DNA of 63,951 nucleotides, the filler included, from Dicyema japonicum (lineage: Eukaryota; Animalia; Dicyemida): the NCBI GenBank assembly GCA_011109175.1. It is 7 parts of 7 records of this genome, joined end to end, with 100 filler letters (N's around TTAATTAATTAA, not from the genome) between each part and the next. Parts side by side here need not be neighbours in the genome. Positions count along the whole stretch, not along the records: positions 1 to 25,957 come from RDEW01000011.1; positions 26,058 to 44,299 come from RDEW01000012.1; positions 44,400 to 49,651 come from RDEW01000208.1; positions 49,752 to 56,253 come from RDEW01000274.1; 3 more parts are not named here. One strand, written 5' to 3'. A program made the position numbers and the translations under genes. Below are positions 11,261 through 56,252 of the stretch, in pieces. Position 1 is the first letter of the stretch. Every line of letters starts with the position of its first letter. The notes beneath the pieces were generated by a model, which was given only the letters and a program-made list of their open reading frames with translations, was not told the origin of the DNA and ran no database searches.

Positions 11261-11670
11261 TTAAGTGAAGAACATTGGCCTTTCCTACGATTAATCAGAA
11301 TTTACTGTTCTTTACTTAAAAATAAAGTGTGTGTCTTGCCTATGCGGGGTCATAAAGCTTTCGTGAAAAGGCTAATTACGAGAACGCGCATCTGATCACG
11401 TGCAGCCTGGATGAGTAATGTATAGCTTTAATAATTTCACGAATGACTTATATCCCGCTCCCACACGAGCTACCCATCCCATGGTGGCTACATGTCACCT
11501 GTCAACCTATCATAATGCCTGTCACAGTGACTGTCAAAATTAATTTCATTGGGTTCTTATCAATAATCGTTTCAACAATAAAGAATTTATTAAAATTAAG
11601 CGTCTATGTTTTTTTACTTGATTCATATTAATTATTTTAGATTTCCCCGAAAGTGTCTTAATCTGATATA

Positions 11671-12083
11671 CACCCCTCGACAAAAAACCACAATACGAAA
11701 TTTATATAAAAATGGAATTTTCGGAAGAATTGCAAAGAAAAAACCAGTTCTAACAAAAAAACACATGGTTTCCAGATTCGAGATCGTCAAAAAATTTCTT
11801 CAAATTTCAGACCATGATTTTAGATCAATAATGTTTTCTGATGAATGTATTTTTGAATTATTACCGACCCAAAAAAGAAAAATTGTGTATAGAAAAAAAT
11901 TTGAAATGAATAAATCCGAAAATATTACTCCAACTGTCAAATTTGAAAAAGGTAAATTGTGATGTAATAAAAAATTAGGGAAAGTCATGGTCAGATTTTA
12001 AAGTATCTCGGAAGAAAAAATTAAATCATTCTGTGTATAAATTAAGTAAGTTGATGATTCACCAATATTTATGTCGAGGGGTG
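11671..12083 (+). mobile_element. Tc1-family deletion derivative
   Basis: TA|CACCCCTCGAC...GTCGAGGGGTG|TA; keeps GRIAKKKP...IMFSDEC...TPTVKF segment. Confidence 0.9.
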
Positions 12084-13391
12084 TATATAATAATAAAATA
12101 GACCATTAGTCGATTGTATGACAAAATTTGAATAATTTCAACTGGTTCTCCATATGGGGATTCAAATCTGTTTAACTTAAGTGAAGGATTTGTCCCATAA
12201 TCCTTAAAAACTCGAACCTATCAATTATTCACTAAACATACTTTATTCCCAATCGAAAAATCGTATTTCGATTGATGAACATTCATTTTTTTATTCATCC
12301 GTTTAAAATACGATGAATTTAAATTCGGTGGAGAAAAAGTCAATACAAAATTATTAGGATCCAAGTTTTCTAGCATACTTTATACAAAATTTACCTGAAA
12401 CATCTGAAATATTTTCTACATCCAAATCCTCAGATGATAGTCGATAAAAATTATCCAAACTTTCACTTTCTTAAAAATTAAAAAAAATTCTAAAAAACTT
12501 TTATACTCATGAATCACGGTGTTTATTCCAGAAACTCCTCTTAGTTTTTTAATAGTGTTTCGTTTATGGACGAATGAATGGTTGTGTTATATATAAAAAG
12601 TGATTCTTTTAATAAATTGAATCCAGTTTTTTGTTGATTCTTCGCACATCAGCTTTGAAAGATTTCGTGTCAAAGTTTGATTAACCCTTTCCACGATACC
12701 CTGAAACAGATAAATATTGTATCATTACTTGTGATTGAGGATGATTTGGTCTTCCATAAATATGTTTGATTTTGTTTTTAAGGCAGAAAGAATCGAGATA
12801 CTCATTTATCAACTCCGTTAGATTATCTGTTTGTAGAATCTTACAAAAGCCGATTTCAAAACCAATTTTTTTGAATGCTTCAAAAATATCTAAATTCCAA
12901 TATCAGATTTAAATATACCTATTGCAGATTTATTTTTTACTCCTTTACAAACATCAATGACGGTGAACATCCATTTTTAGCCATCATTTGAGTCGTTAAA
13001 TTTTTTAGCGTCTATAAGGTCTGCTCGGAATCGTTCATTTGGTCTTTTGGCAATCACATGGAATTTAGAATCGGAAACCTGCTATTAATTTTTTATTTTA
13101 TACTTTAAGTAGAATAGAAAACATGCAAATTGAGCATTCTTTGACAACTCGTTCTATAATTTTCCGCTGTATAGTAAAATCAGAGTGTAAACATTACTGT
13201 TGCAGTTTACGAATTCCAGAATGGCTATTCCGATGAATAGAATCCGCAATAGTTTGCATTTCACTCTGATTATCTATGCAAATAACTAATTTGTGCTTTT
13301 GAAATCTTTCGTCTTTCAGGTGTTAGCGGTCATCAATAACAATAAATTTGGTAGATTTTTTCGTTAATTTATATTTTATCTGCCTTGAGGA

Positions 13392-14615
13392 CAGGGTTGT
13401 TAAAAATCATGATTTTTATTAAAAAAATCAAAAAAATCAGATTTTTTTGATTTAAACATGATTTTTTTGATTTAAATCAGATTTTTATTCATTTTTGTCT
13501 AAACCAACAGCAATTGGTTTGATCAGCCGCAAATATTCTTCAACACGACGTTTTAGACAAATATTTTGGACTTTGGAAGTAATATCTGTATCAAAATCGG
13601 ATATGTGTTCTTCACAAATTCTCAAAATTAACGTCAGCTACTTCTACATCTTCTTTAACGTCAGCTACTTCTACATCTTTTGAAGGTTGAGATAATGTGC
13701 CGAGCAACCATATGTAATAATTTCACTGTCATCTTGCATCACTATCCGCCTCATTTTAGCCATGTTTCCAGCATTGTCCGTCACAAGACTCCCGATTTTA
13801 CATCCAAACCGTTCTCGGCAGACTGTGTCCAGAGGTGTCCACAGTGTCAATTAGATAGCTTTCTCCATCCGATGTTTCAACCGAAACACAAATAACAGGT
13901 TCATTATGAATGTTACTCCACCCATCCAGCATCATAGACACTGTTTGTCCTGGAGTCTTTGTCGACAGTCCTCATGTAGTTGGTCGTACACTCGATCGAG
14001 CAATGGACCACCAATTTGATGACGAGAAGGTAAACGATAGCCAGGAAGAAGCATTTGGACAAATTGAACAAATTCGAGATGTACTACAGCAGCAAAAGAA
14101 GTGTTAGTGGAATATACGTATCTAGCGAGTTGCATATCTATCAAATTTTTTTCCGATAACGTCATCGTAGTAACGAAATTGATTAATGATTGGTCCCTCA
14201 TCCTCAGGGGCAACTCACTGATTAAACCACTTTCAACTTTCGACGGATTTTCAGGGATATCAAAATTAGTTCGGCATAACAAATAATGCTGCCTCATCCT
14301 CAGGGGCAACTCGCTGATTAAACCACTTTCAACTTTCGACGGATTTTCAGGGATATCAAAATTAGTTCGGCATAACAAATAATGCTGCCTCATCCGAGAT
14401 ACGAGACCTTGTACCTCCTTCCCGCAATTACGGCATCTGGCTCGACTGACAGTCTTTCCAGGAATAATATGTTTATCGAAATGAACCCACCTACCAGACA
14501 TTTAATCAATTTAAACAATTTCTACCAACAATGATTTTTTTGATTTTTTTTAATGATTTAAATCACCGATTTTTTTTGTTGATCAAAATCAAATGATTTA
14601 AATCAAACAACCCTG
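13392..14615 (-). mobile_element. hAT transposon (BED-finger transposase), internally deleted
   Basis: TIR CAGGGTTGTT at both ends; perfect 8-bp TSD CTTGAGGA (13384-13391, 14616-14623); WVHF...CRNC...MRQHYLLC BED finger; MMLDGWSN first catalytic Asp in a shifted frame; GATTTAAATC subterminal repeats. Confidence 0.92.
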
Positions 14616-14704
14616 CTTGAGGATGTCTGTACAGGTTCGCCATTTAAGATACTCACTATAGATTGATATTCTGCGATATTTATCACAAAACATATTATTA
14701 TATA

Positions 14705-15250
14705 CAGTGACTCCTCTGAAATTGGCCACCTCTGAAATTAGCCACCTCTGAAATTGACCACACTTATAAAATTATCTTAAGAAAAATTCGAATTTCCATT
14801 GAAATTGGCCAATTCTCAAATTGACCATAAATTTTAAAATATATTTTATATAATTTGCAAATTAATAAAATTTCAGTTATTTTTTTAGTACATGTCTTCT
14901 AACAATTCTCGTGGTAGTTATACTCGTCTCACTTTTTATCAAAAAATACAGATTTTAACTTATAAAAATCAAAATGAAGATGTTTCATGTCAGTATTTGG
15001 CTGATAGATTTTCCCATTTGTGTAAAAAGAAGATTTCCAGAAAAACAATTAATAATATTATTTTGAAAAAAGATTTTTTTCTCAAAGAGTATAAAAAACA
15101 AAATCTATCTTCAAAAAATGCGCATAGACTCAAGTTCCCACAGCTTGATGGTATGTTAGTTGAATGGATGGATTCGATTGAGTCCAAAGGTAATTTGTAC
15201 TAATTTATGATTAAGGTGGCTTTCTTAATGATGCTTTAATTTCAAGTTAG
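14705..15250 (+). mobile_element. pogo/Tigger 5' fragment with a micro-intron in the transposase
   Basis: TA|CAGTGACTCCTCTGAAATTGGCCAC with internal repeats; RLTFYQKIQIL HTH and KFPQLDGMLVEW CENP-B HTH; 26-nt intron 15190-15215. Confidence 0.8.
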
Positions 15251-15289: not shown

Positions 15290-15812
15290 TTTGAAAAGCG
15301 CGGATTTGTCGACCGACACAAAGTCGACGTCGTCGGGGTAAATTACCTCGGTTTCCGATACCGAACTAAGGAAGCTTGACTCCTTTCACAGAAAACAGCT
15401 TCGTGTCTTAAATGGCCTACATTGGCCTAAGAAAATCAACAACTCATCGCTCTACAGGCTCAGCAACTCGGCACCAATCAGCCGTGACATCATAGACGGC
15501 CGCTGGAGGCTATTCGGGCACATCCTAAGAATGGATCCAACTGCACCTGCCTACCAGGCCATGGAAGAATACTTTCTGTCAGATGAATCAAAATTTCGTG
15601 GACGACCCCGAAAAACATTGCCGGCTGTTCTGCAACATGATCTGATCTACGTGGAGAAAACCCTAAACAACTGTGATGATCTGGACGACCTCCGCAAACA
15701 GGCTCAAAACCGCGGAAGGTGGAAAACGATAGTTAAGAAGGTCGTATCGTGTGTGGCACGTGTGGGAATATGACTTTTGTTCATGTTCCTACGGGATGTG
15801 CTATAATAATAA
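15290..15812 (+). mobile_element. RTE-clade LINE 3' fragment
   Basis: LDSFHRKQLR, RWRLFGHILRM, FRGRPRKTLP; short TAA-repeat tail. Confidence 0.85.
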
Positions 15813-16407
15813 ATCTGTTTCCTTCACTAATTTTTTGATTTTATTCCTTTAATCTCTTTTTTGACATCACTTTTTGTTTCACGCTCCTTTTCGGGTTTCT
15901 TCCCAGAACCGATCTCACAATAACGACCCGAATGCGAATTTTCGAATGATCGATTTTGCCATTTTATGATTTCACCCATCTTTCATGCTAAAATGACTTG
16001 CTTCAAGCTTAAAACTTAGTCCTGAACTTCTGCAGTGTCGGAGGATAACTATCGTTTATTTATAATGTCACCAGATACTCCAGAGAATAGATACTTTCAA
16101 AATGTCATTTATTTAAAATCTGTCCATATAAAAAATATCTAAACATATGTTTGTGTAGGCAGTTTTGCGTGCATCGGATATTTCTAAGTCTTTCTCTTAT
16201 GCCATCATTTGTTCAATATCCATATCTGTTATAGGATTCGGATATTGACAGCACATAAAAATATAAATCTGAATTGGTTACATTTTATTGGCAGACACGG
16301 GTTTTTCATATTTTAGTATCAATTTGTGACTCTCGTGTAGAATCAAACTAATTGGGTCATGTCTCCATTTATAATTTTAAGTATTCGATTGACTTTTTAA
16401 AGTGAAC

Positions 16408-16990
16408 TTATTATTATTATCCTTTGCACTATCATAGGAACATAATGTAAAGAAAAACTAATCAAGTTCCCACATATGCCAGACTGTTGTCTTGATCATA
16501 TTTTTCCAGGATGCGAGGTTGCGTGCTATACTCCTAAGAGTATCAAGGTCGTCTCAATTTTTTTAGCTGTCTTTTAATGCGTTGAAGGTCTTTTGAGATA
16601 ACAATAGGTAGTGTTGTTCGTGGACGTCCTCGGAACGCCGATTTGTCGCTTTTGTAATATGATTCCATTGCCCAGTTCCCAGTTAACATAAGCATCTGGT
16701 CAAGTCTTAGTATGTGCCCGAATAGGCGCCAACGAGCCTCGGTAATGTCCATGTTGACGGGTCTACTGTTGCAGATATGGTATAAAGTGGAGTTCTTGAT
16801 TTTCTTCGGCCAGTTAATGCCGATAAGGAGTCTTAAATGTCTTCTGTGGAACGCATCGAGGGATTTTAGTTCAGAACCATGTTCCTCCGTTGTACAGAAG
16901 TATGGGCTTAATAAAAGCATTGTATAGCTTGACATGTAAGGCTGTTTCAACCTTGCGGGTTCGTAGTCATGTGATTTGCAGATCGTTAAG
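16408..16990 (-). mobile_element. RTE-clade LINE 3' fragment
   Basis: LDAFHRRHLR, RWRLFGHILR, FRGRPRTTLP; (TTA)n at about 16408-16420. Confidence 0.85.
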
Positions 16991-17310: not shown

Positions 17311-18862
17311 ATGAGATTTTTTTTGCCCTATATATTATTGTGTCACCAAGTGGCATCTGAAATTAAAATCAAAATCAAAACGGTCGATTCGAAACTTGTA
17401 GAAAACTATCATATTGGATGGTTCAATACATATGTAACAAATTGTATTCATGATTGCAGGTCAATCACTTTGATCCCTACAACATGGATAAATTCTCTAT
17501 GAAATACATATATTCTTCAAAGTATCATAAACCAGGTGGTCCAGTCCTTTTTTATCCCGGAAACAAAGACCGAATTGAAAAATTCGCAGAGAACTTAGTC
17601 ATTTTTTCCATTTATTTAAATAGGAATTTGTATGGAATGCTGCAGCCGAACTAAACGCATTTATCATATTTGCTGAACATCGATATTACGGAGAGTCAAT
17701 TCCAAAAAATATCAATCATGTTAAATACAATTATAATGTTTAGAATAAACAATTTCCCTATTTGTCATCTCAACAAGCGATTGAAGATTACATTGGAATG
17801 ATTTATGAATTATTTCCCGACGAGAAGGTCATAGCCATTGGCGGAGGATATGCAGGGATCTTGGCGGTTCGAATGAGGATGAAATCTCCCGCAAAAATCA
17901 CTGGGTTGACCTCATACTCTAAAATAGTGCGTTTGCCTCATCTGCTCCAATCATGATGTTCAACGGACACGCAGACTGTAGTTCTCCCTTTGAAATCGTC
18001 ACCGAAGTTTTCCGAAAAGCCAATCCAAACTCGGTTGAAAATATTAGAAATGTTTTCAAACTCGTCCAAATTGATTACCTCAGTCTAATCTAAGTCAACC
18101 TAGTTTAGAACATCAAACAAATACACTTTCTAAACTTGGAATTTGCAATTTTTACAATTTTCCTATGGCTTATTTGAATATACAAAAAGTATTTTTAGTG
18201 GCGGCAATGGCTAATTACAAAACTTCTTCGACACTTTTTAAGAATTTACCAGCCCGTCCACTTGATGTATAGTTTGTATTGAGAATTTTTAGAAAATCTC
18301 AGATTTTTTCTCAACTCCAAACATGGAAAAAAATGAATTGGTCTCAGCCTTATATAAAACTCTGAAATTTTATTTTCAAAATGATAGCCAAACGGAATGT
18401 ATTAACATAACCAAAATATCTGACTCTTCGTTTACAACCGAGGAAAATTTTCAGGTTTTTTTAAATAAAAAAATATTTTAGTTTTGCACTGAGATGCCTT
18501 ATCATTTATGTTCGCGAGAAAGTTCAAAAAACATGTTTCTCGAAATGGATTTCGACATTAATGACATAGAGAAGGCCTGTTGGGATAATTTCAGAGTAAT
18601 TCCAAAAAGGAAGCTCAATACTATAAATGCAAATATCGTGGATTTGTCTTCATTTAAGAATATTATATTCAGCAATGGAGAATTTGACCCCTTTAATGGA
18701 GGATGCTATCACAACACTGCTAACAAGGAGATTACTGTCATTGAAATCTCAGGAGCTGCTCATCAATCTGACTTAAGGAAGCCGTCAGCATATTTGGACA
18801 GCATAAGTCTGAAATCTGCAAGGAATCAGACGATCAAAATAATTAAATCTTGGCTCTACTAA
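17311..18862 (+). CDS. PRCP: Peptidase family S28 (lysosomal Pro-X carboxypeptidase/DPP7-like) homologue, 8 exons, predicted catalytically inactive
   Basis: Seven GT-AG introns (17434-17459, 17598-17623, 17720-17743, 17905-17927, 18083-18108, 18267-18292, 18455-18481) give one stop-free frame with VNHF, PVLFYPGN, AEHRYYGES, YLSSQQAIED, ASSAPI, FCTEM, NIIFSNGEFDP, GAAHQSDLR. Confidence 0.9.
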
Positions 18863-19455: not shown

Positions 19456-19880
19456 NNNNNNNNNNNNNNNNNNNNNNNNNNNNNNNNNNNNNNNNNNNNN
19501 NNNNNNNNNNNNNNNNNNNNNNNNNNNNNNNNNNNNNNNNNNNNNNNNNNNNNNNNNNNNNNNNNNNNNNNNNNNNNNNNNNNNNNNNNNNNNNNNNNNN
19601 NNNNNNNNNNNNNNNNNNNNNNNNNNNNNNNNNNNNNNNNNNNNNNNNNNNNNNNNNNNNNNNNNNNNNNNNNNNNNNNNNNNNNNNNNNNNNNNNNNNN
19701 NNNNNNNNNNNNNNNNNNNNNNNNNNNNNNNNNNNNNNNNNNNNNNNNNNNNNNNNNNNNNNNNNNNNNNNNNNNNNNNNNNNNNNNNNNNNNNNNNNNN
19801 NNNNNNNNNNNNNNNNNNNNNNNNNNNNNNNNNNNNNNNNNNNNNNNNNNNNNNNNNNNNNNNNNNNNNNNNNNNNNNNN

Positions 19881-20110
19881 TGGGGTAACCGGCCCTCTTA
19901 CGACTTCTTTCATCAGAGAAGTCGGAGGAAAAGTTGCTAGGCGACGTGGGGAGCCTCGAGAAGTGTCATGGTTGTTCCAACAAATTGGAATAGCTGTCGT
20001 TCGCGGCAATGCACACTCCATCATGCGTGCAACCGCAAGTTAATTAATTAGTATCTCTGTTTCTATATCGATTTAAATAATAATGGATTTTCTCCTTAAA
20101 AAAAAAAATA
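19881..20110 (+). mobile_element. CRE-like non-LTR 3' end with poly(A)
   Basis: WLFQQIGIAVVRGNA; duplicate of 4633-4866. Confidence 0.7.
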
Positions 20111-21546
20111 AAATAAAATAAAATAAAAAGAAATATTTAATCTATATTGTAAGTTCATGTTTCAACTATAGAATATTATTTAAATTGCCTTTCGAATCCG
20201 CCGATTTTGGGACCGACCAAAAAATCGGCGGATTCGAGAGGTTTTAAATAAAATAAAAAGAAATATTTAATCTATATTGTAAGTTCATGTTTCAACTATA
20301 GAATATTATTTAAATTGCCTTTCGAATCCGCCGATTTTGGGACCGACCAAAAAATCGGCGGATTCGAGAGGTTTTACTGTATTTAAAATTTCTATTCAAA
20401 ATCGAACGCCCCAAATTAAAAATCCATCGCCCCATCTCATAAAATTCATCGCTTCATTTGGGCGATATCGCCCACGTTGAGAACCACTGCTCTAGAGTTA
20501 AGCGATTTTGAGAGGATGGATTCATTTTTTCATTGACGAGTCAACAAAATTAATTACATATCGTCCGTCATTAAGACATTTATGAACACGTAAATAGTTC
20601 ATACATCACATCGAGTTACGGACTCGTACATATGATAGGGCAAGAGTCCACAGTCAAATGAGAGTGAGATGTGGTAAATATGGACTGTTTCGTCAGCAAA
20701 TTCCGGTCTTTTTTCCCCTTATTCCGTATGATCCTGTACGAACATAATTCTGAATAAGGGGAATTAGAGTTTTCTTTTTAACAAACTTGGAGCTATGTCT
20801 AGAACTGATTCTTCCAATTCATTAATTTTTTTACTACTTCGTCTACAACAGTGGTTCTCGACCTTTTTTAGACTGGGGATCACTTTTGCACTATAAAATT
20901 TTGTAGGGACCACCTTAAATAATGCGATTATCTTGTTCATTCAATTCGATAACTCTTTGAGATAGTTAGACAAAATCACCACCAAAACTACCAAAAAAAC
21001 CAGACATGGTGGTCTACTGATGAAGAATTAATATAATGTGTTAGATATCTTATTCTCCAGAATGAAAAAAGGAGGGGCGGGCCAGTGCATGGAGTTTTGT
21101 ACGCATTCAGTCTTCTATTGATGACACCCCTCCAATAGTAGAAAACGACTAATCGACAATAATACACAACCCAGTCCACTATCAAGTCATATTATCCAAT
21201 AAATAAACCTTTTTCCCTCTAGGGCAGGGGCCACCAAACTTTTTGCACTCGCGGGCCGGAGCACGTGCATAGGATTATAATTTTACTAGAAATTCATAAG
21301 TGTGTTTTTTCACTAAAAACTAATTTAAACAAAAATAAAGTCAAACACTCACTCAAAAATTATTGATTATATTCTGAAATTCGCCATTTTATCAAATTCG
21401 CCGCAAAAATGACGGAACCAAATATGGCGAATTTGGGAGTATTCACTGTACTAACTTTGTTGCTATTTAAAAAGCTCATTACACTGAAGACCATTGAGTG
21501 AAGAGCAATGAGGATTACTACGAAGAAAAGTCCGATTTACTGATTA

Positions 21547-22652: not shown

Positions 22653-22809
22653 TATATCAATAATCTGATAGCAAGAAACATAGTCCTCAATAACCAATCC
22701 ACATTAAATAAAATATGTAGATTCCGACTATGACTTATCCAAAACGGACAACGAAAAATGAATTAATTGAACGTGGCAAAACACTTGTGAGGCATATCTA
22801 AGTTGTATG

Positions 22810-23880: not shown

Positions 23881-23914
23881 TGCTTCTAATTTTTATGAGT
23901 TTTTCTAATTTTTA

Positions 23915-26001: not shown

Positions 26002-26013
26002 TTAATTAATTAA
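26002..26013. other. Artificial contig spacer TTAATTAATTAA (also at 44344, 49696, 56298, 60727, 62512)
   Basis: Identical six-frame-stop 12-mer centred in 100-bp N blocks. Confidence 0.97.
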
Positions 26014-32169: not shown

Positions 32170-33770
32170 CGGTTCTATGGTTGAGGACCTGGTTCGCTTG
32201 TGTTGTAAACACCACTCAAACATGCAGATATAAACTGGATAATGTGAAGGATGTCATCGGTTCTTCTTACAACTTTCTTTGAATTGACAGAAAATTACCT
32301 TTTTAAATGCCAGGAACCTATACAATGTCCATCTCCCACACTGAACGTGACAGATCTACAAGAATTTGCCGCGTCCTAGTTAATAACTGAAGGATCACAC
32401 AAACATGGTAAAATAAACAATATACGGAGACCTAAACATACGAACAACGGTTTGATGCTTACAAGAGACTGAAATAAAAGTGGATTTGATCACAAATAGA
32501 ATCTCCGATTACTATCGGATTCAGCATCAATGTATAAAGGATCATTATTCAGGAATCCACAATGACAAGGATGAAAACTGGAGACAAATAGTCTAGAGGA
32601 CTCATCGTAGACGAACCGCTCACAAATTGAGATCTCTACTCATTCTATTCTGAACTAACAAAAATGTAAATGGATACAGAAATGTTCCTGATTTCTGTCA
32701 CTGAAGATTGGAACGCATTAACCATGACAGAAGTACTATATACTTCCCTGAGAATGCATAGATCATCATGACTTTCAATCTTTTCTTCTGTAGCACATGA
32801 TCCCGACGCTCTGCGAAGCACAAAACTGCCTGAAAGGGTTACAGACGAGATCATTCTAAGATGATATAAGGATATGTAATCAGACTGATTACATCATCTG
32901 CCGTCATAAAGATAAATGCAAACTAGAAAAATCTCGATTATATGGGGGGATATCACAAAAGTGACCACAATATAATTTTGGGTAGAATTGATACCAAAAC
33001 CTTCATGCAGCATGAAGACAAAGAAGCCTTCTGAAAAGATATTTCTCAATTCATGTTACTCAGACAAATAGCTTATATCGAATAATCTAGAAGGGATGAT
33101 ATAGGAAATCGTGAAACAAAAGAACACGGTTGACTTAATTACAAAGAAACAGTCTTGAAATGGTTGCTCGGGGAGATCCTGAGGTATTACAAAAGTTTAT
33201 AAATCAGAGACTTTAACAATCAGCAGATCTGATAGTATAATAAATGAATTCTGAGGAGCTCTGGAAAATTTCCAAGGCACGATATTATTAAACGTGGTCT
33301 TGAAGCTCCTGGTTTCCATTCAATCATAGAGCCTGTTGTATTTAATCGAGAAGATGGGAGAAGAGAGAATGACGATCTTCACATTTATAAAAGGATGATC
33401 TCTCGTGTTTACTATCATTTGTGTTGATACATTTCCCTTTACAAATATGGTACCCAGTGCAACCTCAGTTTGTCCTGCCATTGACTCTGCCGAACATAGG
33501 AAACTTGATATCCCGTTTACACATCGTTCCAATCGCGTTAGAGACTTTTAATGTAGTCGACACTCTCACCAGAAGTGCTCTCTGAGAAATTAAAAGCACA
33601 ATCTCTTCAAGACAGAAAGATTTTCGAAATCGACGTTGGTTCCGCGAACGTTTTGGAATTGCCATCATTTGCAGCAATGCCTTAAATCTCTGACAGCTAA
33701 TGCCTGACTCACTTTTCCCGATATTAAAAAATTATGATTTGAGCAAAAATAGCAACTTTAATAAAGAATC
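32170..33770 (-). CDS. Probable micro-intron-split gene, product unknown
   Basis: Coding-like composition between AT-rich spacers, chained short minus-strand ORFs (32645-32854, 33320-33532, 33465-33677), hydrophobic start region; exon structure unresolved. Confidence 0.3.
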
Positions 33771-33839
33771 CATTATCGACTATTACTTAGTTTAAGAAGT
33801 ATTTTTTCCATTTGATTTCTTCCTTTGAATAATTAAAAT

Positions 33840-36800
33840 TCAGTACATGTTTATCCTAACTTTCGATCGATGACCGAATCTGTCATTTTTGAAAATTGTG
33901 AACCACCCAAATGAGGTGGGGGAAGAAAGGAAGTACCCATTTCCATATTGGGAGAACTCCAAGGACTTTCTGGAATAACACAGTCATTAACATGGAAAAC
34001 TGATCTTCGAAGCATTTTGTTGAAAATAAAACTTTCAGATCAGGAAACGACATAAAATTTAAAGTGTCGTCCCCAAGTAAATATACGAGTCCCTTAACTT
34101 TGTTATTTTTAAAATCGTTCCTTTGGACGTAATCGATCTTTAGACAGCACGTGGAATTACTTTTTGGGACAAAACGTGCTGAATTGTGTAGTTTGAGGTC
34201 CCTTAGATTATAAATCTATCATTTTGTAGATTCCACTAACTTTGACTTTTCGGTTTGTGCAAATGACCAGACGGTCCTCTCCCTTCGCCATGGTAGAGGC
34301 ATTGTCGATGAGGTCATAATCACAGGTCAACACGAATATTTCCAATATTGGATCTTTGTTGATTAAAAGAATCTCGTCAGCTAAACATTATTCGATTTAC
34401 ATGCCGAGATTGATCAGTGGAGTTTGGAATCTGTCATCTATGGCCGAAGGATGAGACTTTACAGTAAATATAAGAACCCTTCCAGAATTGGTTCCCACAA
34501 ATAGTTTGAGTCCTGAACTGTTACTGATAAAGTCTAAAGTCACATCCTTCCACCAACCAGATTTAAGTTGAGTGTGAGCAAAGCATATGGCCTCTATTGA
34601 GTAGTCAGGTATGAGAGAACTCTGATGGTTTGTTTCCACGTGCAAATTCCTGAAGCTCTGTCGTCTCGAAAAAGATCTCCTAAAAGATCTATTGAGTCTG
34701 CTGAACGATCTAGTTAATGCCGGTTCCACGTTATCTAAACATGAAACTCATGAGTAACTATTAGGGATCGTAGTATCAAGTAAATATATGCACGTGCTAT
34801 TGGCGTAGTCCAAAATGGCGAAACCGTGAGTAGTCCCAATGGCAAGCCTAGAATTTACAAGTTCCATACTTTTTGGCTTGGGAAAAGAGACTCAGTTGAA
34901 TGGAAGAATAAACTGGGTAGATTTTGAAGACGGATAACAAAAGAAATCTCCCACGTGTATTCTTAAAGGTGGAACTGTCTGAATTTGAGTAAAAAGGACG
35001 GTTGGCCACAATGTTAACTGTTGTGACCTGCGAGGATTCAGCACAAGGACAGACCGCGACCGATGATCCGTTTTCTCTTGAATGTTCCTCTGAGCAGTCG
35101 AAAATCATGACGTGGTCCACAAAACCACAAATAACAAAAATATTGGAAGTCGTATCGTAATATAGTTTATTAATTGTGAATCGTTTGTCATTGGATCCAA
35201 AATGGTGGTTAGAAACCTAAATTTAATTCCTTACTCACTTGGGAAATTTTGGGATGCCCAAGGTCGGGGATTTCTTTAAAACTGAATCCAAAATATCTGG
35301 AAACGTTCATTTTGAGTAGTGGGTGAATACTAAACTCCGCAGCCTGCCAGAACCCTACCACCCCCTCCATGTGACTAGATTGATTAGACAAGTCACCCGG
35401 TAATGATGATTTCTGACACATCGTTCGTTTCTCCCAGTTGATAGTCATTTCTCAGCATCCACGACTTTTTATAACTGCAATTTTCAGAATTTGGCCAGGA
35501 ATCCTTGGAGTACAGCTTTTGGGTTGATTTCTGGGACAAGAACATGCACTGTGAGCAGACAATTTCGGGGATATTGACAGAACAGAGATACGAGGGGTTG
35601 ATTTCCTTCCACTCATCGTCGATGAGGTCGATGGCGATTAACTCATCCTCAGTGAAGACCAACAGAAAGCTGGGAGAGTCTGAGAATTCAAAATGCGCAG
35701 TTTAACCTGATTGATCACGAATAACTAGAAAATCAATGATTTTCATGTTGAACTGGAATACCTTGTGATTCGAGGAATTCACCAACGTCAAAGTGTCCTC
35801 GCAGTGAAAAGACTGGGGAGTTCCACCAATGAAACACAAATAATTGTTGGAACTTATGAATTCTATTTTTCTGATGGGACAACAGACTGCATAAGCTTCA
35901 ACCAAACCTTGGTCATAAGCGGAGATCTTGAAGGAATTGTTTACACCGTTTTCGTTGTATATCGAATATTTTCCGTCCTTGAATGCACACACGAAGGCGT
36001 TGCCTTTGGAATTCCAGGAAACTGTGCTAATAATCTAAACTAGCCCAATATAAGTTTACAGAGTTCATGATACATCGATTTATGGGCACATTCTTCTGCA
36101 TATCCCAAATAATCAGCATTCCGTTGTTGAAGAAAATCAAAAAGAGAGCCGCATTGACTGGATTGTTCTTCATCGACACAATGTAGACATCCCCTCCATT
36201 ATTTCTGCTACAGATTATACACTCAGACAAACTTTTCCTTGCTTTTAATCAAAAATTTGGTTTTGGGGGAAAAGTTGGACAGATCGAGCACAACAATGTC
36301 TTCTTCTTCCCTCAAAGCCCGGTTATCCACTCCAAGCAACAGTTTTTTGTTGACTACGATCGCACAGGAAATTTTTGAATCGATTCTATGACTTATTATC
36401 TAAACTAACATTGTTGCTATATTGATTGAGTTTATCCAAATTACCAAAGTCCCCTCTTCGCATTCCTGGAGTTGGTAGACGGATATTTCTTTGTCCCCAA
36501 TCAGGATAATTTGTTTCTAGTTCTAATAAACCCAAAACCTTGCTGCTTCTAAAAAACAGAAGTCCCCTCTTCGCATTCCTGGAGTTGGTAGACGGATATT
36601 TCTTTGTCCCCAATCAGGATAATTTGTTTCTAGTTCTAATAAACCCAAAACCTTGCTGCTTCTAAAAAACAGATAATTTCCGTTTTCGTTTATTGGACAT
36701 TGAACCTCTGTTCCAGGATATCCGTAACTAAGTTTCAGTAAAACGTGAATACATGTGCAAGATATTCCTTGCGGTTATTGCTATCAAGTCGAGTTTTTTA

Positions 36801-47777: not shown

Positions 47778-48960
47778 GAAGATGTTATGGATTTTTTCAT
47801 GATTTGAAACTCAGAAGTACTGTTTGCAGTAGAAGTGCCGCAATTATTCAAGCTGAAATTTCAGAGAAAACACATTTGGCATTAATTGAAGAATTTCTAA
47901 GGCACAAGTATTCTGTGTGCGACATTTCTGATTTGGATATAAATTGATGTCGAACATGCAAAAAGGAGGTTTATGAATCAAATAAGATTGAAGAGTCTTC
48001 ATTCCGTTATTTATAAAAATTTGTTGGAGGATTATGTGAATATAGAGCATTCCTTTCAAAATAGGAATCTGTTCTTTGGAGAACAAAATGCAATGTGCAC
48101 CCATTGTAAAAAATGGAAGAAGACCGTAGATCATTGTGCCGCAAGGTGTGAAAAGATATTACATGGGGATTATGTAAGAAGACATAACGAAGTCGTGAGG
48201 TGTCTATATTTTCACTTTTGCAGAGAGTTTGGTTTCAAAAACGAGAAGAAACTGAAAACTCATTCAGTGCAATCCATTGTAATGAATGACTCATTTGAAA
48301 TCAGAGTTGACACTTTTATCAAAACGGACATAATTATTGAGCATAACAAGCCAGACTTGTTCGTTTTTGATATAAGGAGAAACAAAATTATCTTGGTCGA
48401 AGTGGGAATAACATCATCCCAAAATCTACAGCAGGTGGATGCGAAAAGCTGAGGAAGTATGACCTTGGAGTTGATACACAATGCAGAGGTCAAGATTGTC
48501 TCAATTGTACTCACTTGGGATGGCCTAGTGACTTCACATTCGTTGAAGTATGCCAGATCTTTGAATTTAAGTGAAAGAACGTATGCATATGTTCAATAGC
48601 TGATACACAATGCAGAGGTCAAGATTGTCCCAATTGTACTCACTTGGGATGGCCTAGTGACTTCACATTCGTTGAAGTATGCCAGATCTTTGAATTTAAG
48701 TGAAAGAACGTATGCATATGTTCAATAGCTGGTAATCAAGAAGACTTTGGAGAGTATGATTGTATCATATAGGAACCAAGTCGACGTTTCGCGGCGTTAT
48801 GATAAACTTAACGAAGGGATAAAAGATATTTACTCTCGGTCTGATTATGAAGAAATTCAAGAGAAGAGTGTGAGCTAAGTGAAGTCAATGGACTGTGACA
48901 ATTGGGTTTACCCCCATAGTTGCTCGAAGAGGAAAAGACTTGGATAGAGAAAATTTTAAT
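47778..48960 (+). mobile_element. R4/NeSL-like (RLE) non-LTR retrotransposon 3' part
   Basis: CTHC...TVDHCAARC CCHC finger, YVRRHNEV, HNKPDLFVFD...LVEVGIT PD-(D/E)xK endonuclease. Confidence 0.85.
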
Positions 48961-49651: not shown

Positions 49652-49919
49652 NNNNNNNNNNNNNNNNNNNNNNNNNNNNNNNNNNNNNNNNNNNNTTAAT
49701 TAATTAANNNNNNNNNNNNNNNNNNNNNNNNNNNNNNNNNNNNNNNNNNNNTTCTAATTATATTATGTCCTAGTCCGAATAAAATACACGCCGAATAATC
49801 TACACTTGTCACAAATGGCCGAAAAAAATAGAAATTTAAAAAATTAGTCTGACAGAATAAATAATTGATTATTTATTTTTCTAGAATCACATAATTATTT
49901 TTTACTTAAAAAAGCGTGA

Positions 49920-51260
49920 AAACATGCGTGTAGTGAGACTGTATAAGGAAACACTAGAAAAAATCAAGAAATGAAGAACCCCAACTTTGATACATCTTCA
50001 ATCGATCGGCATGAACGATACAAGCTTACAAAATTGGGAAGGAATTTCCATTTTGAAAATGGAAAAACATATTTTCAAAAGAATGGGATAAAATTACGTT
50101 TTTTCTGTGAAGATGAACTCGAATTAAAGCTTAAGTGCGTTGAGGTGCAACTTAATAAATAAAAGTTAGGAGGAACNCAAGAATTGAAGAACCCCAACTT
50201 TGATACATCTTCAATCGAGCGGCATGAACGATACAGGCTTACAAAATTTGGAAGGAATTTCCATTTTGAAAATGGAAAAACATATTTTCAAAAGAATAGG
50301 CTAAAATCACGTTTTTTCTATGAAGATCAACTCGAATTAAAGCTTAAGTGCGTGAGGTGCAACTTAATAAAAAAAAGTTAGGCGGAACATAACTATAACC
50401 AATTTGGGAGAGACCGCCTTTTTTCAAAATTAAGAAATCTTTATTATGGATTGAATAGAGAGGAAATCTCTAATGTGATTTCGAATTGTTAGCCTCAAAA
50501 TTGTTTTGGACGATATCGCGAGTGCATAAAAGATATCGTTTGTGATTACAACAATACCATCCATTCTTTTACAAACAAATCTTGTTCTACATATTTATCG
50601 GTGTTGAAAATTCTGAAAGAATCGATGAATAAGAAATGGAGCAACTTTTAGCTTATGATTCGATGGGATTATCAGAGGCACAAGAAAGTGCGTTAGAAAA
50701 TTTAATTATTGCNATTGTTCGTCTAAAAATTGTTTTGGACGATATCGCGAATGCATAAAAGATATCGTTTATGATTACAACAATACCATCCATTCTTCTA
50801 CAAAAAATCCAGTTCTACATATTTATGGGTGTTGAAAATTCTGAAAGAATCTATGAAGGGGAAATGGAACAACTTTTAGCTTATGATTCGACGGAATTAT
50901 CAGAGGCACGAGAAAGTGCGTTAGAAAATTTAATTATTGCTGGCGAAAAAATGATTGAAAAAAAAAATGGAGATACGACGAAGAAAATATCGTTGTTGGA
51001 ACCACTGTGCTTTTAAGGTCTCAGCGTCAAATTAATTTTTAGACAGGACAACGATGTCAATGTTCGNCTGTGCTTTTAAGGTCTCAGCGTCAAATTATTT
51101 TTTAGACAGGACAACGATGCCATTGTTTGGCAGTATCCACTGTACGATAGACCTTATGTTAATAAGTATATTGTTGTCGAGCGAACAAATGATCTCTATG
51201 TTATCGAAAAGGAGGACTAGGAATGATTACATGGAATTCATATTTCTCGATTAGCTAAAA
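49920..51260 (+). mobile_element. Second Ginger-type integrase relic, catalytic core deleted, with a micro-intron
   Basis: KCVE|EH NYNQFGRDRLFSKLRNLYYGLNREEISNVISNC finger after a 25-nt intron (50145-50169); IVCDYNNTIHSF; VVGTTVLL GPY/F-like region; broken by N-joined overlaps. Confidence 0.6.
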
Positions 51261-53364
51261 TTGATTAATTTTGTTAAATCTGGAATAAAAATAATTTTTT
51301 ATTCAAAATTAACGATAAATTTTATCTGAAAAATGTGTTAGGATAACCTAAAATGACATAACAATGTTCAAACTTATACTTTAACTGCGTAAATTGAATT
51401 TGGTCGGTTTTGTTTATACAAACTAGTAAACAAAATTAATGAATTTTAAATTAAAAATCATATTTTTAATAATAATTAAACATTTTGTTGTGTAAATTTT
51501 TAATTTNNNNNNNNNNNNNNNNNNNNNNNNNNNNNNNNNNNNNNNNNNNNNNNNNNNNNNNNNNNNNNNNNNNNNNNNNNNNNNNNNNNNNNNNNNNNNN
51601 NNNNNNNNNNNNNNNNNNNNNNNNNNNNNNNNNNNNNNNNNNNNNNNNNNNNNNNNNNNNNNNNNNNNNNNNNNNNNNNNNNNNNNNNNNNNNNNNNNNN
51701 NATAATATAATTCGTCCGGCATATATTTCAGACAGCCTCCATGTCTGTTAGTTGATTGTCTCACTGTCTGTTGTTGACTAAATTATTTATAATCCACAAA
51801 ATACTTTTGAATGCTATTTGGTGTAGTGGAATTTGAATTTCTTTGATTGTTGTTGTCCTAAATTTGTTTGAAATAATTTATAAAAACAAACATTTCTATT
51901 ATTGTTTGGTTTTACTTCTTTAAGGTCTAAATATTTCAACTGTTGCACCATATCAAAATAAATTAAACGATTTTGTAAAAATGTATTAAAATGATGTTTG
52001 CCAAATAAAAAGAAAACATGAATATTAAAAATAAAAATTAATTAAGGTCAGGGACTAAATAATTTATTTTGTTAAATTTTCCTTAAAATCAAGTTTATAT
52101 TAATGAAAGTTTCATTTACTCTTGAATTTGACTGCATTACATAAGAACAAATCTGCAACTTTAGATTTTATTGAGATAAACAAGGATCATTTGAATTCTT
52201 CAATCGATCTTATATTTTTACTAAAATCTTAGCGAAGTTAATGAATATTAAAATTCTAGTTTTTTTAAATAATTGGTAAAAAGGTTACCTTCGAAAGTTA
52301 CAAAACGCAATATATTGACCACATTTGTCCAGACTAATGATGTCTTTGTAAATTAAATTTTAATAATATTTTACAATGTCTGATTTCATGCTCTAGTCTA
52401 ATTACAGTTGTAAGTTATATAGCTATGCAAAACGAGTAAAATAGTATCATATTAGACTAGCTCCAAAAAGAATTGACCTTGCTGCAAGCTTTAGAGCAAA
52501 ATCAAGACAAAATAACTAAATAATCTAAATCTAAATTATTTTTTAGATAAGATATTATTTAATTTCTAACTGCAATATTATATGAGTCTTTGATTGGTTG
52601 CTTTAAGTTCCTAACAGAAGGTTATTTAAACTATTTTTTTAATTATTTTAAAACTAAAATAAAAAATAATTTAGTAACGTTTGATTATTTCTCGAAAAAT
52701 ATTAACGAAATTAAATTTCATGAAACCGAAAAAATAAAATAGAAATTAATAACGAATGAGCCCGCCAAACATATTCCAGTTTGAGGACGCTTCAGTATAA
52801 TTTGCAGGCTTATTTATGGTCAATCGCGTCGTCGGATATAGACTAAACAATAATAGTATATAATACTAAATAGAACTGGACTCTGATCTGGCATTATTCC
52901 AACTTTGCTATAAATAATTATATATCATTAAAAATTAATTAACATTTTGATTATTGCTTGTATTCAATTCCTTATTATCCAAATATTTCAACTGTTGCAC
53001 CATTTCAAGACAAACAAACAATAAATAAGAAAAGTGTATTTTAAAATACTGTTCACCAAATAAAAAGAAAAGAAAATTACTAAAATTAAAAATAAAATTA
53101 ATAATACAAACCAAACAAAATTTTCTGTACTTCCTGATTTTATTCGTTTTTTTTTAAAGTTCCGAGTCAAAGATACTAAGCTCATGTTTATATAAATTTG
53201 TACAAAAATGATTTATATTTCGAAATTTGATAAGTCGGTAAGATCTTTAAAAATGTTTTTAAGAAAATTTGTTCGAATTAAGAATATTTTGTAATTCAGT
53301 TATTGAAAATTTAATAAATTTAAAAATTTCTTGATATCTATTTTTTAACAATTTTTCCACGACA

Positions 53365-53706
53365 GTGGGTACCCTTCAGGGAGACTCCCTTGGCTGTTTG
53401 TGATTTATTTAGAGGCGGCACTGCGCAATTTAGACGCTTTTATAACGGGCAAATCACCGAAATTGTATACGCTGACGATGTGGATTTTATATCACCTGAT
53501 ACAACAGCCTTGAGGCGGTTACTTGACGTTGCTCCAGCAGAGCTCGAGAAATGGTTCCTTACCGTGAATACAACTAAAACGAAAATCACGGAAATCGCAC
53601 GTATGAGATCAAGATTGGATGAGGAATGGAGACGTTCTAGAAAACTTGCCTCACTCCTCGGAGATAGCGAGGACATAACCCGGAGGAAAGTACTATCGAC
53701 GGCCGC
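53365..53706 (+). mobile_element. RTE-clade RT fragment
   Basis: QGDSL, YADDVDF, EEWRRSRKLASLLGD. Confidence 0.85.
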
Positions 53707-55135
53707 NNNNNNNNNNNNNNNNNNNNNNNNNNNNNNNNNNNNNNNNNNNNNNNNNNNNNNNNNNNNNNNNNNNNNNNNNNNNNNNNNNNNNNNNNNNNNN
53801 NNNNNNNNNNNNNNNNNNNNNNNNNNNNNNNNNNNNNNNNNNNNNNNNNNNNNNNNNNNNNNNNNNNNNNNNNNNNNNNNNNNNNNNNNNNNNNNNNNNN
53901 NNNNNNNNNNNNNNNNNNNNNNNNNNNNNNNNNNNNNNNNNNNNNNNNNNNNNNNNNNNNNNNNNNNNNNNNNNNNNNNNNNNNNNNNNNNNNNNNNNNN
54001 NNNNNNNNNNNNNNNNNNNNNNNNNNNNNNNNNNNNNNNNNNNNNNNNNNNNNNNNNNNNNNNNNNNNNNNNNNNNNNNNNNNNNNNNNNNNNNNNNNNN
54101 NNNNNNNNNNNNNNNNNNNNNNNNNNNNNNNNNNNNNNNNNNNNNNNNNNNNNNNNNNNNNNNNNNNNNNNNNNNNNNNNNNNNNNNNNNNNNNNNNNNN
54201 NNNNNNNNNNNNNNNNNNNNNNNNNNNNNNNNNNNNNNNNNNNNNNNNNNNNNNNNNNNNNNNNNNNNNNNNNNNNNNNNNNNNNNNNNNNNNNNNNNNN
54301 NNNNNNNNNNNNNNNNNNNNNNNNNNNNNNNNNNNNNNNNNNNNNNNNNNNNNNNNNNNNNNNNNNNNNNNNNNNNNNNNNNNNNNNNNNNNNNNNNNNN
54401 NNNNNNNNNNNNNNNNNNNNNNNNNNNNNNNNNNNNNNNNNNNNNNNNNNNNNNNNNNNNNNNNNNNNNNNNNNNNNNNNNNNNNNNNNNNNNNNNNNNN
54501 NNNNNNNNNNNNNNNTACTTTATTGAACCGAACAAGTATATTTGATTAGTGTTGAATTTATCACTTTCCGCAAACCCAATTCCCGCCTTGTTATTTGAGT
54601 TTCTTTTAAAATTATATCTGAGCTTCTATGTTCACTTTTCGAGGCCAGTTGGACATGGTGTCTGATATTAAAGCTTTTTGAGGCATTTGCTATGTGTATA
54701 GAAGGCATTATTTTCCTAGAAAGGCATTAAGGCATTATTTTCCTTCACAAATAAATTTAATTTGCTAAAAGTAGTATAAATTAAAGTTGAAATTTGCAAG
54801 TCAATAAAGAACAAATATTAGTTTTAGTACCAACCATCAATATGCAGCAATGCGAATCAACCAGACAAATTAATAATTGAGTCACCATCATCGTCCTCTT
54901 CATCCTCACTATCATCTTCATTTCCGCCTGGATATTTATAGAGCTGATTCTTGTTGTTCAATTAAGAGAATACATTTGCAATGAGGTTCATTATGGCAGT
55001 CCGTTTTTTGGTGGTAGGTCCTACAGAGCTCTGTCTTTGTTTAAAAACAGAATATAGAAATAAATTCTAAATTTATAAAATTTCTGTGAATTTGCTGCAG
55101 GAATCAAAAGAATATCTTTCTGAGTTAACCAAGTA

Positions 55136-56252
55136 CACCCCTCGACAAAAAATTTGGTTATTCAATCTTTCCTGCTTTTATTCATTTAAAAACGAATAAA
55201 TTCATAATTTAAGATTCTTTAGATCTTCTAAAATAATATTTATTTTGTATTTATAATAAAAATAGATTAAAATTTCAATATTGCAAGAAATTTAAAGCAT
55301 GTCGGCAATTAGGCTAGTGACATTAAAATTGGTTATAAAATTTAAACCGTAAAATTATGCTAGTATTTAGAGTTTGATCTTAATAAAAAAGTATTTTTAG
55401 ATATAATACTCTCGATTCGTTTCTGAAAGGGAAAATAATTGCGCCATACGACCTAAATATGTCCTATATTAAAATTTCTTAAGAAACCGGTGTTCCATAT
55501 TCAACAGTCTTAAATTTTATCAAAGAGTAAAATAAAACTAAATCATATGACCGCCAACATGGTTCTGGAAGACCATCAATTTTGAATAATGTATAAATTA
55601 ATCATTTGGTACGCACATCAGAGGAAAATTCATCTTTAACTGCTTCTGAACTTTCTAATGAAATAGAAAAGTTTTCTGATACACGTGTCTTGTCTCGAAC
55701 CACAATACGAAATTTAAATAAAAATGGAATTTTTGGAAGAATTGCAAAGAAAAAACCAATTCTAACAAAAAAAACATGGTTTCCAGATTCGAGATCGTCA
55801 AAAAATTTCTTCAAATTTCAGACCATGATTTTAGATCAATAATGTTTTCTGATGAATGTATTTTTGAATTATTACCGACCCAAATAAGAAAAATTGTGTA
55901 TAGAAAAAAATTTGAAATGAATAAATCCGAAAATATTACTCCAACTGTCAATTTTGTAAAAGGTAAATTGTGATGTAATAAAAAATTAGGGAAAGTTATG
56001 GTGTGGGGTTGTTTCTCCTATCCTAGGGTAGGCGATTTTGTATTTATAGACAAGACGCTTAATTCTGCAAAATATCAATCTATTTTGATTGATAATTTGC
56101 CACATTCTGCACAAAAAATGGGGATTGTTGACTATATTTTTCAACATGACAACGCTCCCAGCCATACATCAAAAATGATTATTCAATATTTTCGCGAAAA
56201 CATATTAAAAAATTAGAATGGCCTTCGCAATCTCCGGATTTAAATCCGATAG
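55136..56252 (+). mobile_element. Tc1 (DD34E-type) transposon, pseudogenised, 3' end in gap, transposase with 27-nt intron
   Basis: TA|CACCCCTCGAC terminus; GRPS, MFSDEC, KG|KVMVWGCF, FQHDNAPSH, WPSQSPDLNPI(E). Confidence 0.92.

Follow-up and report, generated by a model that had tools for sequence, protein, structure and literature searches.

Dicyemids are tiny parasites of octopus kidneys. In the stretch of Dicyema japonicum DNA analysed here (63,951 nucleotides, hereafter the window), decayed DNA transposons are interrupted by very short segments that begin with GT and end with AG, which raises the question of whether these inserts are introns of the host's own kind and, if so, whether they were gained in this lineage or shrank from longer ones. 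It is considered likely that they are ordinary GT-AG spliceosomal introns, as predicted from sequence, in four cut-and-paste families, with a size probably set by the host splicing machinery, and that the Tc1 intron was probably gained.

Candidate introns in four transposon families

Ten distinct GT-AG inserts of 22-29 nt were found in the window across four decayed DNA-transposon families, with one insert in Tc1, one in pogo, six in Ginger-type element 1 and two in Ginger-type element 2. The earlier note had placed inserts at 55963-55989 and 11952-11978 (27 nt, identical), at 15190-15215 (26 nt) and, with lengths of 22-29 nt, in two Ginger-type integrases, all of which were recovered. It had spoken of three unrelated superfamilies, a description that has to be given up, since Tc1 and pogo both belong to the IS630/Tc1/mariner superfamily (10.1101/656579, in part). 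The Tc1 family comprises the following features:

55136..56253, plus strand: Tc1-family element, near full length, with a TA-flanked terminal repeat; it is decayed by stops and frameshifts, and its right end is missing at an assembly gap
55963..55989, plus strand: predicted 27-nt phase-1 intron with an in-frame stop, located where the Tc1 catalytic domain has its glycine-rich box
11671..12083, plus strand: Tc1 copy with an internal deletion but both terminal repeats kept, sitting inside Ginger-type element 1
11952..11978, plus strand: identical 27-nt predicted intron within the deleted copy

This family carries a paired-like helix-turn-helix and a DDE domain homologous to Tc1 transposases (Pfam HTH_Tnp_Tc3_2, E 8e-8; Sleeping Beauty transposase, E 5e-16), and TA-flanked terminal inverted repeats are present at both ends of the copies at 135-729 and 11671-12083 and at the left end only at 55136. 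In this last copy a frameshift separates the second D from the E that would define a DD34E spacing, and the codon of that E is cut by the assembly gap. The alignment to Sleeping Beauty opens a 9-residue gap exactly at the insert, and the distance from the first D to the W is 42 in the spliced form and 51 in the unspliced one, 42 being the value in 83 of the 111 scorable homologues (of 151); seven homologues with a seemingly longer spacer proved to be pattern artefacts. When 1270 in-frame deletions were scored with an HMM built from 83 homologues, removal of the GT-AG 27-mer reached 182.2 bits (168.8 bits unspliced), 0.5 short of the top score and level with 7 neighbouring registers, and the chance of a GT..AG pair among the ~14 near-best registers was about 2% under the local dinucleotide background. 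The spliced core aligned without gaps to 8 of the 13 nearest proteins. The nearest relatives are only 38-48% identical. Among them, the uninterrupted Tc1/Sleeping Beauty-family proteins of the microsporidians Enteropsectra breve (48% identity) and Cucumispora dikerogammari (38%) are colinear with the catalytic core and have no residues, or a break, at the dicyemid insert site.

The two Tc1 copies differ at 5 sites in 236 nt, none of them in the intron, and position 11660 is joined to 12093 in a contig of run X1, where the deleted copy is thus absent. Additionally, the insert is kept in contigs of runs X6, X7 and X8 (two studies) that are ~90-95% alike, with changes inside it and none at the GT or AG among the rows listed; it is therefore older than the spread of these copies. 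None of the joints or deletions listed in contigs of six of ten runs (X1, X2, X6-X9) matches any predicted intron, host or element, a comparison that says nothing on expression.

The Ginger-type elements and their predicted introns are as follows:

11493..14704, minus strand: Ginger-type element 1 (H2C2 and DD35E integrase-like transposase), decayed, recognised by its TGTCA terminus and Pfam
13082..13103, minus strand: predicted intron 1, 22 nt; use of the next acceptor, 3 nt on, would give 25 nt in the same frame
12890..12918, minus strand: predicted intron 2, 29 nt; its junction is spanned by the alignment to a bacterial IS integrase
12701..12728, minus strand: predicted intron 3, 28 nt, lying after the second D and before the E
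12470..12498, minus strand: predicted intron 4, 29 nt, frame evidence only
12370..12394, minus strand: predicted intron 5, 25 nt, frame evidence only
12218..12241, minus strand: predicted intron 6, 24 nt, containing two stops in frame
49971..51270, plus strand: Ginger-type element 2, preserved in fragments (N-terminus, H2C2 finger, C-terminus) and locally duplicated in tandem; right boundary approximate
50145..50169, plus strand: predicted intron a of element 2, 25 nt, with a duplicate at 50357-50381
51018..51042, plus strand: predicted intron b of element 2, 25 nt, with a duplicate at 51081-51105

Element 1 is interrupted by the deleted Tc1 copy and by a hAT element (13392-14615, 8-bp duplication). 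Its Pfam matches, Integrase_H2C2 (E 0.004) and rve (E 0.001), are in order and below the cut-off, and the nearest Atlas clusters are of the rve type at 0.93. The terminus at 11493 fits TGTNR at one end only: the window yielded no second end, and so neither the pair of terminal inverted repeats (40-270 bp) nor the 4-bp target duplication expected of Ginger. Between the terminus and 14704 the reading contains neither reverse transcriptase nor RNase H, the 5' end lying out of sight. Searches for Ginger relatives retrieved bacterial IS integrases and retroviral integrases only, with weak E-values; no Ginger relative was found in viral contigs, and searches of PDB with exon 4 and of Atlas with the last exon gave nothing useful. 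The element may resemble Ginger2/KRBA2. In element 2 the catalytic core is largely missing, H2C2 being the only domain recognised (Pfam Integrase_H2C2, E 0.038).

Removal of intron 3 restores the 35-residue D-E spacing, so that the spliced protein shows the DD35E arrangement, and two IS integrases align with it gaplessly. With all six inserts out, element 1 becomes one 381-codon frame with 4 stops, compared with 20-40 stops per frame unspliced. An unbiased parse likewise returned six introns and 4 stops, at a cost of 10 (22 on the opposite strand), which none of 100 dinucleotide shuffles reached (minimum 12, mode 20).

The fourth family is represented by a truncated copy:

14705..15245, plus strand: 5' part of a pogo/Tigger-like element with a TA-CAGT terminus, cut off by a non-LTR retroelement fragment
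15190..15215, plus strand: predicted phase-1 intron of 26 nt, falling where the pogo-like gene encodes its second helix-turn-helix region

Its left end, a TA-flanked CAGT, lies at 14705; the right end is absent, and the copy stops at 15245, before any DDD catalytic domain. The gene matches Pfam CENP-B_N slightly below the cut-off (E 2.8e-4, 20.9 bits vs 21.2) and a CENP-B structure at E 0.28. Ten codons of exon 2 survive, for which the comparator is a single, weak sequence from the window.

The sites differ in how well they are supported. Support is strong for Tc1 and for introns 2 and 3 of Ginger-type element 1, as predicted introns, because homologues align across the junction; it is moderate for pogo, for introns 1 and 6 of element 1 and for both sites in element 2. 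Introns 4 and 5 of element 1 are frame-only. Homologues lack matching residues across the inserts of Tc1 and introns 2 and 3, and more weakly across that of pogo, matching residues being an outcome that the earlier note had named as refuting; the other six sites are without homologue support. Frame restoration, taken alone, is weak evidence: in decayed hAT and retroelement fragments the same parser turns frameshifts into false introns, and one such call would delete the RT catalytic motif. Its calls from six other regions, being without homologue support, were left out. Every insert would break the frame if retained, although such disruption is built into the detection procedure.

The host's own introns as a yardstick

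Three host genes in the window served for comparison:

17311..18862, plus strand: S28 peptidase-like gene, host control, with seven predicted introns of 23-27 nt
33740..36395, minus strand: tomosyn/LLGL-like gene, host control, with seven predicted introns of 22-27 nt used; boundaries approximate
59688..60682, plus strand: CNNM gene, 995 nt without an intron

The S28-like gene lies on the same gap-free contig as the deleted Tc1 copy, Ginger-type element 1 and the pogo-like element. Its exons follow in order Pfam S28 positions 4-45, 50-76, 83-138 and 315-432, and without its seven introns it encodes a stop-free 457-aa protein in the standard genetic code. As a side observation, the CNNM protein shares 94% identity with one labelled Octopus sinensis but 46% with CNNM4 of O. 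bimaculoides, from which it groups apart on a long branch; no labelled Dicyema protein was among the 120 matches listed. D. japonicum was collected from O. sinensis (PMC6736024, in part). Judged from the sequence alone, a different micro-intron host (myxobolid, ciliate or microsporidian) is improbable given this identity, the animal-type CNNM and LLGL/tomosyn genes and the standard code, and it would leave the reading of the inserts as it is.

The earlier note had also held that the inserts are sized like host introns, and this is borne out: no difference in length was found between the 10 element introns and 14 host ones (22-29 vs 22-27 nt, medians 25.5 and 24.5 nt, Mann-Whitney p 0.15), although the match is partly a matter of choice, since the host set consists of 14 of 25 introns parsed in four genes (7/7 in the S28-like gene, 7/13 in the tomosyn-like gene), those longer than 27 nt or with uncertain ends having been dropped. 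The median of all 25 is 26. Host intron size and the G+C content of 35% are consistent with a dicyemid. Published medians are 27 bp in dicyemids (PMC6543705, in part) and 22-27 bp in myxobolids (PMC13644364), and the ultra-short introns of both groups share with the inserts a length of 22-29 nt, GT-AG ends, signals pared down to GTa and AG and an A+T-rich interior (PMC13644364, PMC6543705, PMC2222250, PMC6736024, in part). The small size of the inserts is thus expected and no surprise, because ~27-nt dicyemid introns and transposase introns are both already published.

Taken together, the idea that the inserts behave as host-style spliceosomal micro-introns, with splicing predicted, is supported. 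The host would transcribe the element and its spliceosome would remove each insert as in host genes, leaving the transposase frame whole only after removal, as a retained insert would give a stop or a frameshift. Since the elements move as DNA, the introns would be copied along with them, and one Tc1 insert is in fact shared by two copies in the window and by contigs from three further runs. RNA-intermediate retroelements would lose such introns. The earlier note had reported the retroelement fragments as intronless, which their stop-free RT frames (1143, 1044 and 684 nt) bear out; the contrast with DNA transposons is nevertheless weak, because the host CNNM gene likewise runs for 995 nt without an intron. 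Its inference of a mobilome adapted to a micro-intron spliceosome fares worse, as the readable parts of four of the eight DNA-transposon families in the window contain no intron; an intron in this host must have micro size, and element-specific adaptation is therefore unnecessary.

Gain, shrinkage and the remaining alternatives

For Tc1, the evidence favours a predicted intron gained inside the lineage over a shrunken one, because Tc1 relatives lack the insert and sister families share no positions. Among related DNA loci, 79 of the 80 in one alignment span the site and none of the 79 has an insert at the junction; these loci are the best 80 of 457, one of two scan patterns spans the site, and the homologue sets are biased to intronless genes, the proteins coming from uninterrupted gene calls. 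As to sister families, the two Ginger-type elements have neither of their two comparable intron sites in common (0/2), and a second pogo family in the window lacks the insert at the corresponding position. On this reading, gain of the Tc1 intron, and probably of several more, would have followed the settling of the family in the lineage and taken place at AG|G-type sites, and it is likely that some inserts were gained after the elements entered the dicyemid lineage.

An origin of all the introns from ancestral ones, in elements that were resident before miniaturisation or arrived with introns that then shrank alongside the host's, is a less probable but serious possibility. Dicyemid host introns lie at conserved bilaterian positions, which means that they are shrunken (PMC2222250, in part), and Ginger1 elements elsewhere have 1-4 introns, some conserved with host-domesticated genes (PMC2836005, in part), so shrinkage is possible for the Ginger sites. 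The inserts also bear no trace of an origin by tandem duplication, being no more like their flanking exons than shuffles (p<0.05 in 1 of 11 element rows and 1 of 14 host rows). Against this stand the spanning Tc1 loci, the positions not common to sister families in the window and the uninterrupted genes of the nearest named Tc1 proteins, which are microsporidian; moreover, a long incoming intron might be poorly spliced. The long residence or active gain suggested in the earlier note can thus be kept in part, with gain favoured for Tc1 and shrinkage possible for Ginger.

It is rather unlikely that the introns were selected as a regulatory gate through stage- or germline-specific splicing, of which the P element is an example, and as a one-way barrier that would leave the elements unspliceable in octopus or other animals. 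Retention of any insert would disrupt the frame, and exon-end AG (6/10 element vs 2/14 host introns, p 0.03) and A at +3 (7/10 vs 3/14, p 0.035) are commoner in element introns, but the disruption is inherent to detection, both p-values are post hoc and from small numbers, stronger splice sites point to efficient rather than gated splicing, and half of the DNA-transposon families lack an intron. That the inserts arose through decay of dead copies (as small insertions, footprints or scars of repair), end in GT and AG by chance and are never spliced is very improbable: all window copies are indeed pseudogenes, therefore none able to make transposase, and the parser does yield spurious GT-AG segments in other decayed elements, but all ten sites measure 22-29 nt, end in GT...AG (10/10) against a background probability of 0.0017 per register and have an A+T content of 79%, none of the 100 shuffles matched the Ginger-1 parse, and the Tc1 insert persists in diverged copies from other studies.

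Known systems and meaning for dicyemid biology

The preferred reading, ordinary host-style introns in cut-and-paste elements, has parallels in other systems. Ginger1 and Ginger2/Tdd have the same H2C2 and DD35E integrase-like transposase, TGTNR terminus, lack of an internal reverse transcriptase and GT-AG introns, but Ginger1 has 1-4 introns and element 1 six predicted ones, all below 30 nt (PMC2836005, in part). Like the Tc1 family, the spiralian TLEWI of bivalves has a Tc1-like transposase split by spliceosomal introns; however, TLEWI is DD36E, mostly without terminal repeats, low-copy, proposed to be domesticated and divided into 3-6 exons (10.1101/656579, in part), whereas the family described here has TA-flanked terminal repeats, deleted derivatives and one 27-nt intron between two exons. 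In Salpingoeca rosetta, four of seven transposase families bear introns, so that, as here, some families have them and others do not (PMC6875170, in part), and the Paramecium elements Anchois, Sardine and Thon have predicted introns in a host that is likewise a micro-intron one (PMC3464196, in part); unlike dicyemids, neither is an animal.

The papers on dicyemid and myxobolid introns treat host genes rather than elements, and one masks repeats before annotation (PMC13644364). The string 'transpos' is absent from the main text of PMC6736024 and PMC6543705, and the word 'intron' from PMC4007536, PMC7325037 and PMC4202319. Introns in dicyemid transposons were the subject of none of the papers listed by the literature searches. 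Gene finders and repeat classifiers that expect introns longer than 30-40 nt do not see such transposases.

Multi-copy elements provide many dated copies of one micro-intron together with intronless relatives in other taxa, which single host genes cannot, and they make testable both intron gain in genomes with shrunken introns and a limit set by intron size on horizontal transfer between parasite and host. More speculatively, and with less confidence than is given to ancestral introns, unrelated transposase genes that arrive intronless may acquire introns of 22-29 nt de novo at AG|G sites, as many as six in one integrase gene, and so become captives of hosts with micro-introns, which would put a one-way valve on horizontal transfer between parasite and octopus. 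Published dicyemid data report shrinkage at old positions only (PMC2222250, in part); if de novo gain is true, a reduced parasite genome with the smallest animal introns would still be making introns.

Predicted introns in transposase genes

A total of 10 distinct sites with 13 occurrences of predicted inserts, distributed over four families, was observed within the window. The carrier elements, which are decayed and nested, and their inserts are as follows.

11493–14704, minus strand: Ginger-type element 1 (Ginger-1), terminus TGTCA at 11493
11671–12083: deleted Tc1 copy interrupting Ginger-1, insert at 11952–11978
12218–13103, minus strand: span of six Ginger-1 inserts (22, 29, 28, 29, 25 and 24 nt)
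13392–14615: hAT element interrupting Ginger-1, with an 8-bp duplication
15190–15215: pogo insert, in a copy broken off at 15245 by a retroelement fragment
49971–51270, plus strand: Ginger-type element 2
50145–51105: span of two 25-nt sites of Ginger-type element 2, with a local duplicate of each
55136–56253: near-full-length Tc1 copy, insert at 55963–55989

The two Tc1 inserts and the pogo insert named in the earlier note are present, with GT..AG ends on each, and the inserts as a whole are a real feature, very probably host-sized spliceosomal introns in transposase genes. A contig of sequencing run X1 joins 11660 to 12093 without the deleted Tc1 copy; therefore, Ginger-1 copies free of that insertion exist.

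The proposed agreement with host intron size was borne out, since no length difference was found between 10 element introns and 14 host introns selected from the 25 parsed (medians of 25.5 and 24.5 nt; 26 nt with all 25). A median of 27 bp is given for dicyemid introns (excerpt of PMC6543705). The S28 peptidase-like gene neighboring the elements lies on one gap-free stretch with Tc1, Ginger-1 and pogo, and a stop-free 457-aa protein requires removal of seven 23–27-nt introns, its exons following the Pfam model order. This gene (17311–18862, plus strand) has a glycine at the expected catalytic serine position of the S28 family and, because of this replacement, its predicted product may be catalytically dead or diverged.

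Evidence for the individual inserts

When the Tc1 catalytic region was translated straight through, with the stop read as X, its alignment to the Sleeping Beauty transposase contained a single gap, of nine residues, placed at the insert. In the set of 151 Tc1 homologues, 111 were scorable for the spacing between the first catalytic D and the W past the glycine-rich box, which is 42 in 83/111 and 39–45 in 104/111; the window Tc1 gives 42 if spliced and 51 if unspliced, so that removal of the 27-nt insert restores the conserved motif, as had been claimed. Distances of 51–52 occur in five homologues, and the two displayed show a normal motif at the site. An apparent long local spacer in seven homologues proved to be a pattern artefact. 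The GT-AG 27-mer scored at most 0.5 bits below the best of 1270 trial deletions, and the chance of meeting GT..AG ends anywhere among the near-best registers is about 2%.

Without its six inserts, Ginger-1 forms a single 381-codon frame with 4 stops (20, 30 and 40 in the unspliced frames), and leaving in any single insert raises the count to 6–35. An unbiased parse arrived at the same sum, with six introns and four stops, and was matched by 0 of 100 shuffles. The spacing from the second D to E in the spliced product is 35; the intron 3 junction aligns gap-free with two bacterial IS integrases, one of these two also aligns across the intron 2 junction, and exon 3 is matched through its final residue by a retroviral integrase, with a weak E-value. 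Pfam returned H2C2 followed by rve, in the correct order and both below cut-off. Introns 4 and 5 are supported by frame only, which matters because the same parser invented GT-AG segments at frameshifts in decayed retroelements; the two sites of Ginger-type element 2 are backed by frame plus a weak H2C2 match.

Of 166 trial deletions free of stops, the pogo 26-mer was the sole one with GT-AG ends. It had the joint-best score against the second pogo family of the window, these scores being low and only 10 codons lying downstream; it is predicted to be an intron with moderate support. A possible extra 24-nt GT-AG insert (4370–4393, plus strand), with frame evidence only, was noticed within the region encoding the C terminus of a decayed pogo DDE copy.

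Other repeats, artefacts and octopus-labelled relatives

A 5–6 kb block containing pogo, two non-LTR fragments and MITE-like pieces is present twice (about 4630–10250 and 19880–25950, 89–99% identity, 15.4 kb apart), representing either haplotypes left uncollapsed or a segmental duplication. One host gene has its 3′ part repeated in tandem over 1 kb (41100–42100 and 42140–43140), and numerous further local duplications of 60–350 nt (e.g., 14168–14383 and 49965–50353) suggest that tandem duplication is frequent or that the assembly contains artefacts. A non-LTR fragment at 47780–48880 (plus strand) combines a zinc knuckle with a restriction-like endonuclease motif and is R4/NeSL-like; RTE-like and L2-like RT fragments lie elsewhere in the window, and unclassified repeated pieces with broken frames at 15778–16470 (minus strand) and 1380–2320 are possibly more transposons. 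The 12-nt all-frame-stop linker that lies between two 44-N runs in scaffold gaps (26002–26013, 44344–44355, 49696–49707 and others) is an assembly artefact and not biology.

The window CNNM, a host protein used to place the organism, shares 94% identity with an Octopus sinensis-labelled protein and 46% with O. bimaculoides CNNM4, from which it is separated by a long branch in the tree. Two O. sinensis-labelled proteins, from contigs below 1 Mb, form a long-branched group with the window protein, away from O. bimaculoides; these contigs are likely parasite contigs within a public octopus annotation. The renal sacs of O. sinensis are a dicyemid habitat (excerpt of PMC6736024); together with the CNNM affinity and the published 27-bp intron median, this makes it quite likely that the host of the elements is a dicyemid.

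Origin of the predicted introns and limits of the adaptation reading

Among the best 80 of 457 related DNA loci, 79 cross the Tc1 site in one-piece alignment, 71 of the 79 with no insertion and 8 with 1–5 residues; inspection of each of the four loci with at least two extra residues revealed no insertion at the junction. The closest named proteins, microsporidian transposases with 48% and 38% identity, are uninterrupted; element exchange between microsporidia and animals is the topic of PMC4202319 (seen in excerpt). In L018, a relative from a soil metagenome, a separate GT-AG insert of 45 nt, containing an in-frame stop, lies about 12 codons further downstream than the Tc1 site; Tc1 genes therefore seem to acquire introns at positions that vary from host to host. 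Another related locus, L080, carries about 80 additional nt around query residue 260. In the window itself, neither of the two sites comparable between the Ginger-type families is shared, and the pogo insert is absent from the second pogo family. Among the contigs listed from runs X6, X7 and X8, those about 90–95% alike retain the Tc1 insert, and a single contig of run X8, which belongs to a more distant Tc1, runs uninterrupted across the site, which may reflect an intronless sister family or spliced RNA.

Taken together, the insert-free relatives, the unshared positions within the window and the run contigs favor gain of the Tc1 intron, which on these comparisons was somewhat more probably gained than shrunk, the relative sets being biased towards intronless genes. 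Shrinkage in place at old positions is described for dicyemid host introns (PMC2222250, in excerpt), and Ginger1 elements elsewhere have 1–4 introns (PMC2836005, in excerpt); the Ginger introns may thus stem from either gain or shrinkage. A preceding AG and a GTA start are commoner in element than in host introns (p about 0.03 each, post hoc), a lead that hints at recent gain at proto-splice sites; a duplication signature was tested at the inserts and not found.

The wider claim of a mobilome adapted to micro-introns across three unrelated superfamilies was not supported, as Tc1 and pogo share one superfamily (excerpt of 10.1101/656579) and 4 of the 8 readable DNA-transposon families of the window (the second pogo, a pogo DDE fragment and two hAT) have no clear intron. 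Moreover, small size is obligatory in this host, where all introns must be tiny, and therefore element-specific adaptation is not implied. Since introns below about 30 bp are thought absent in most animals (PMC13644364), gating of expression and a host-range barrier would be reasonable as predictions only. Introns are reported in 4 of 7 transposase families of one Salpingoeca genome (PMC6875170) and predicted in transposases of Paramecium elements (PMC3464196), both in excerpt; no prior report on introns in dicyemid transposons was found in the literature searched. Micro-introns in transposase genes are thus a variation on already known phenomena, and their lasting interest lies in the hint that a genome with shrunken introns still gains introns.
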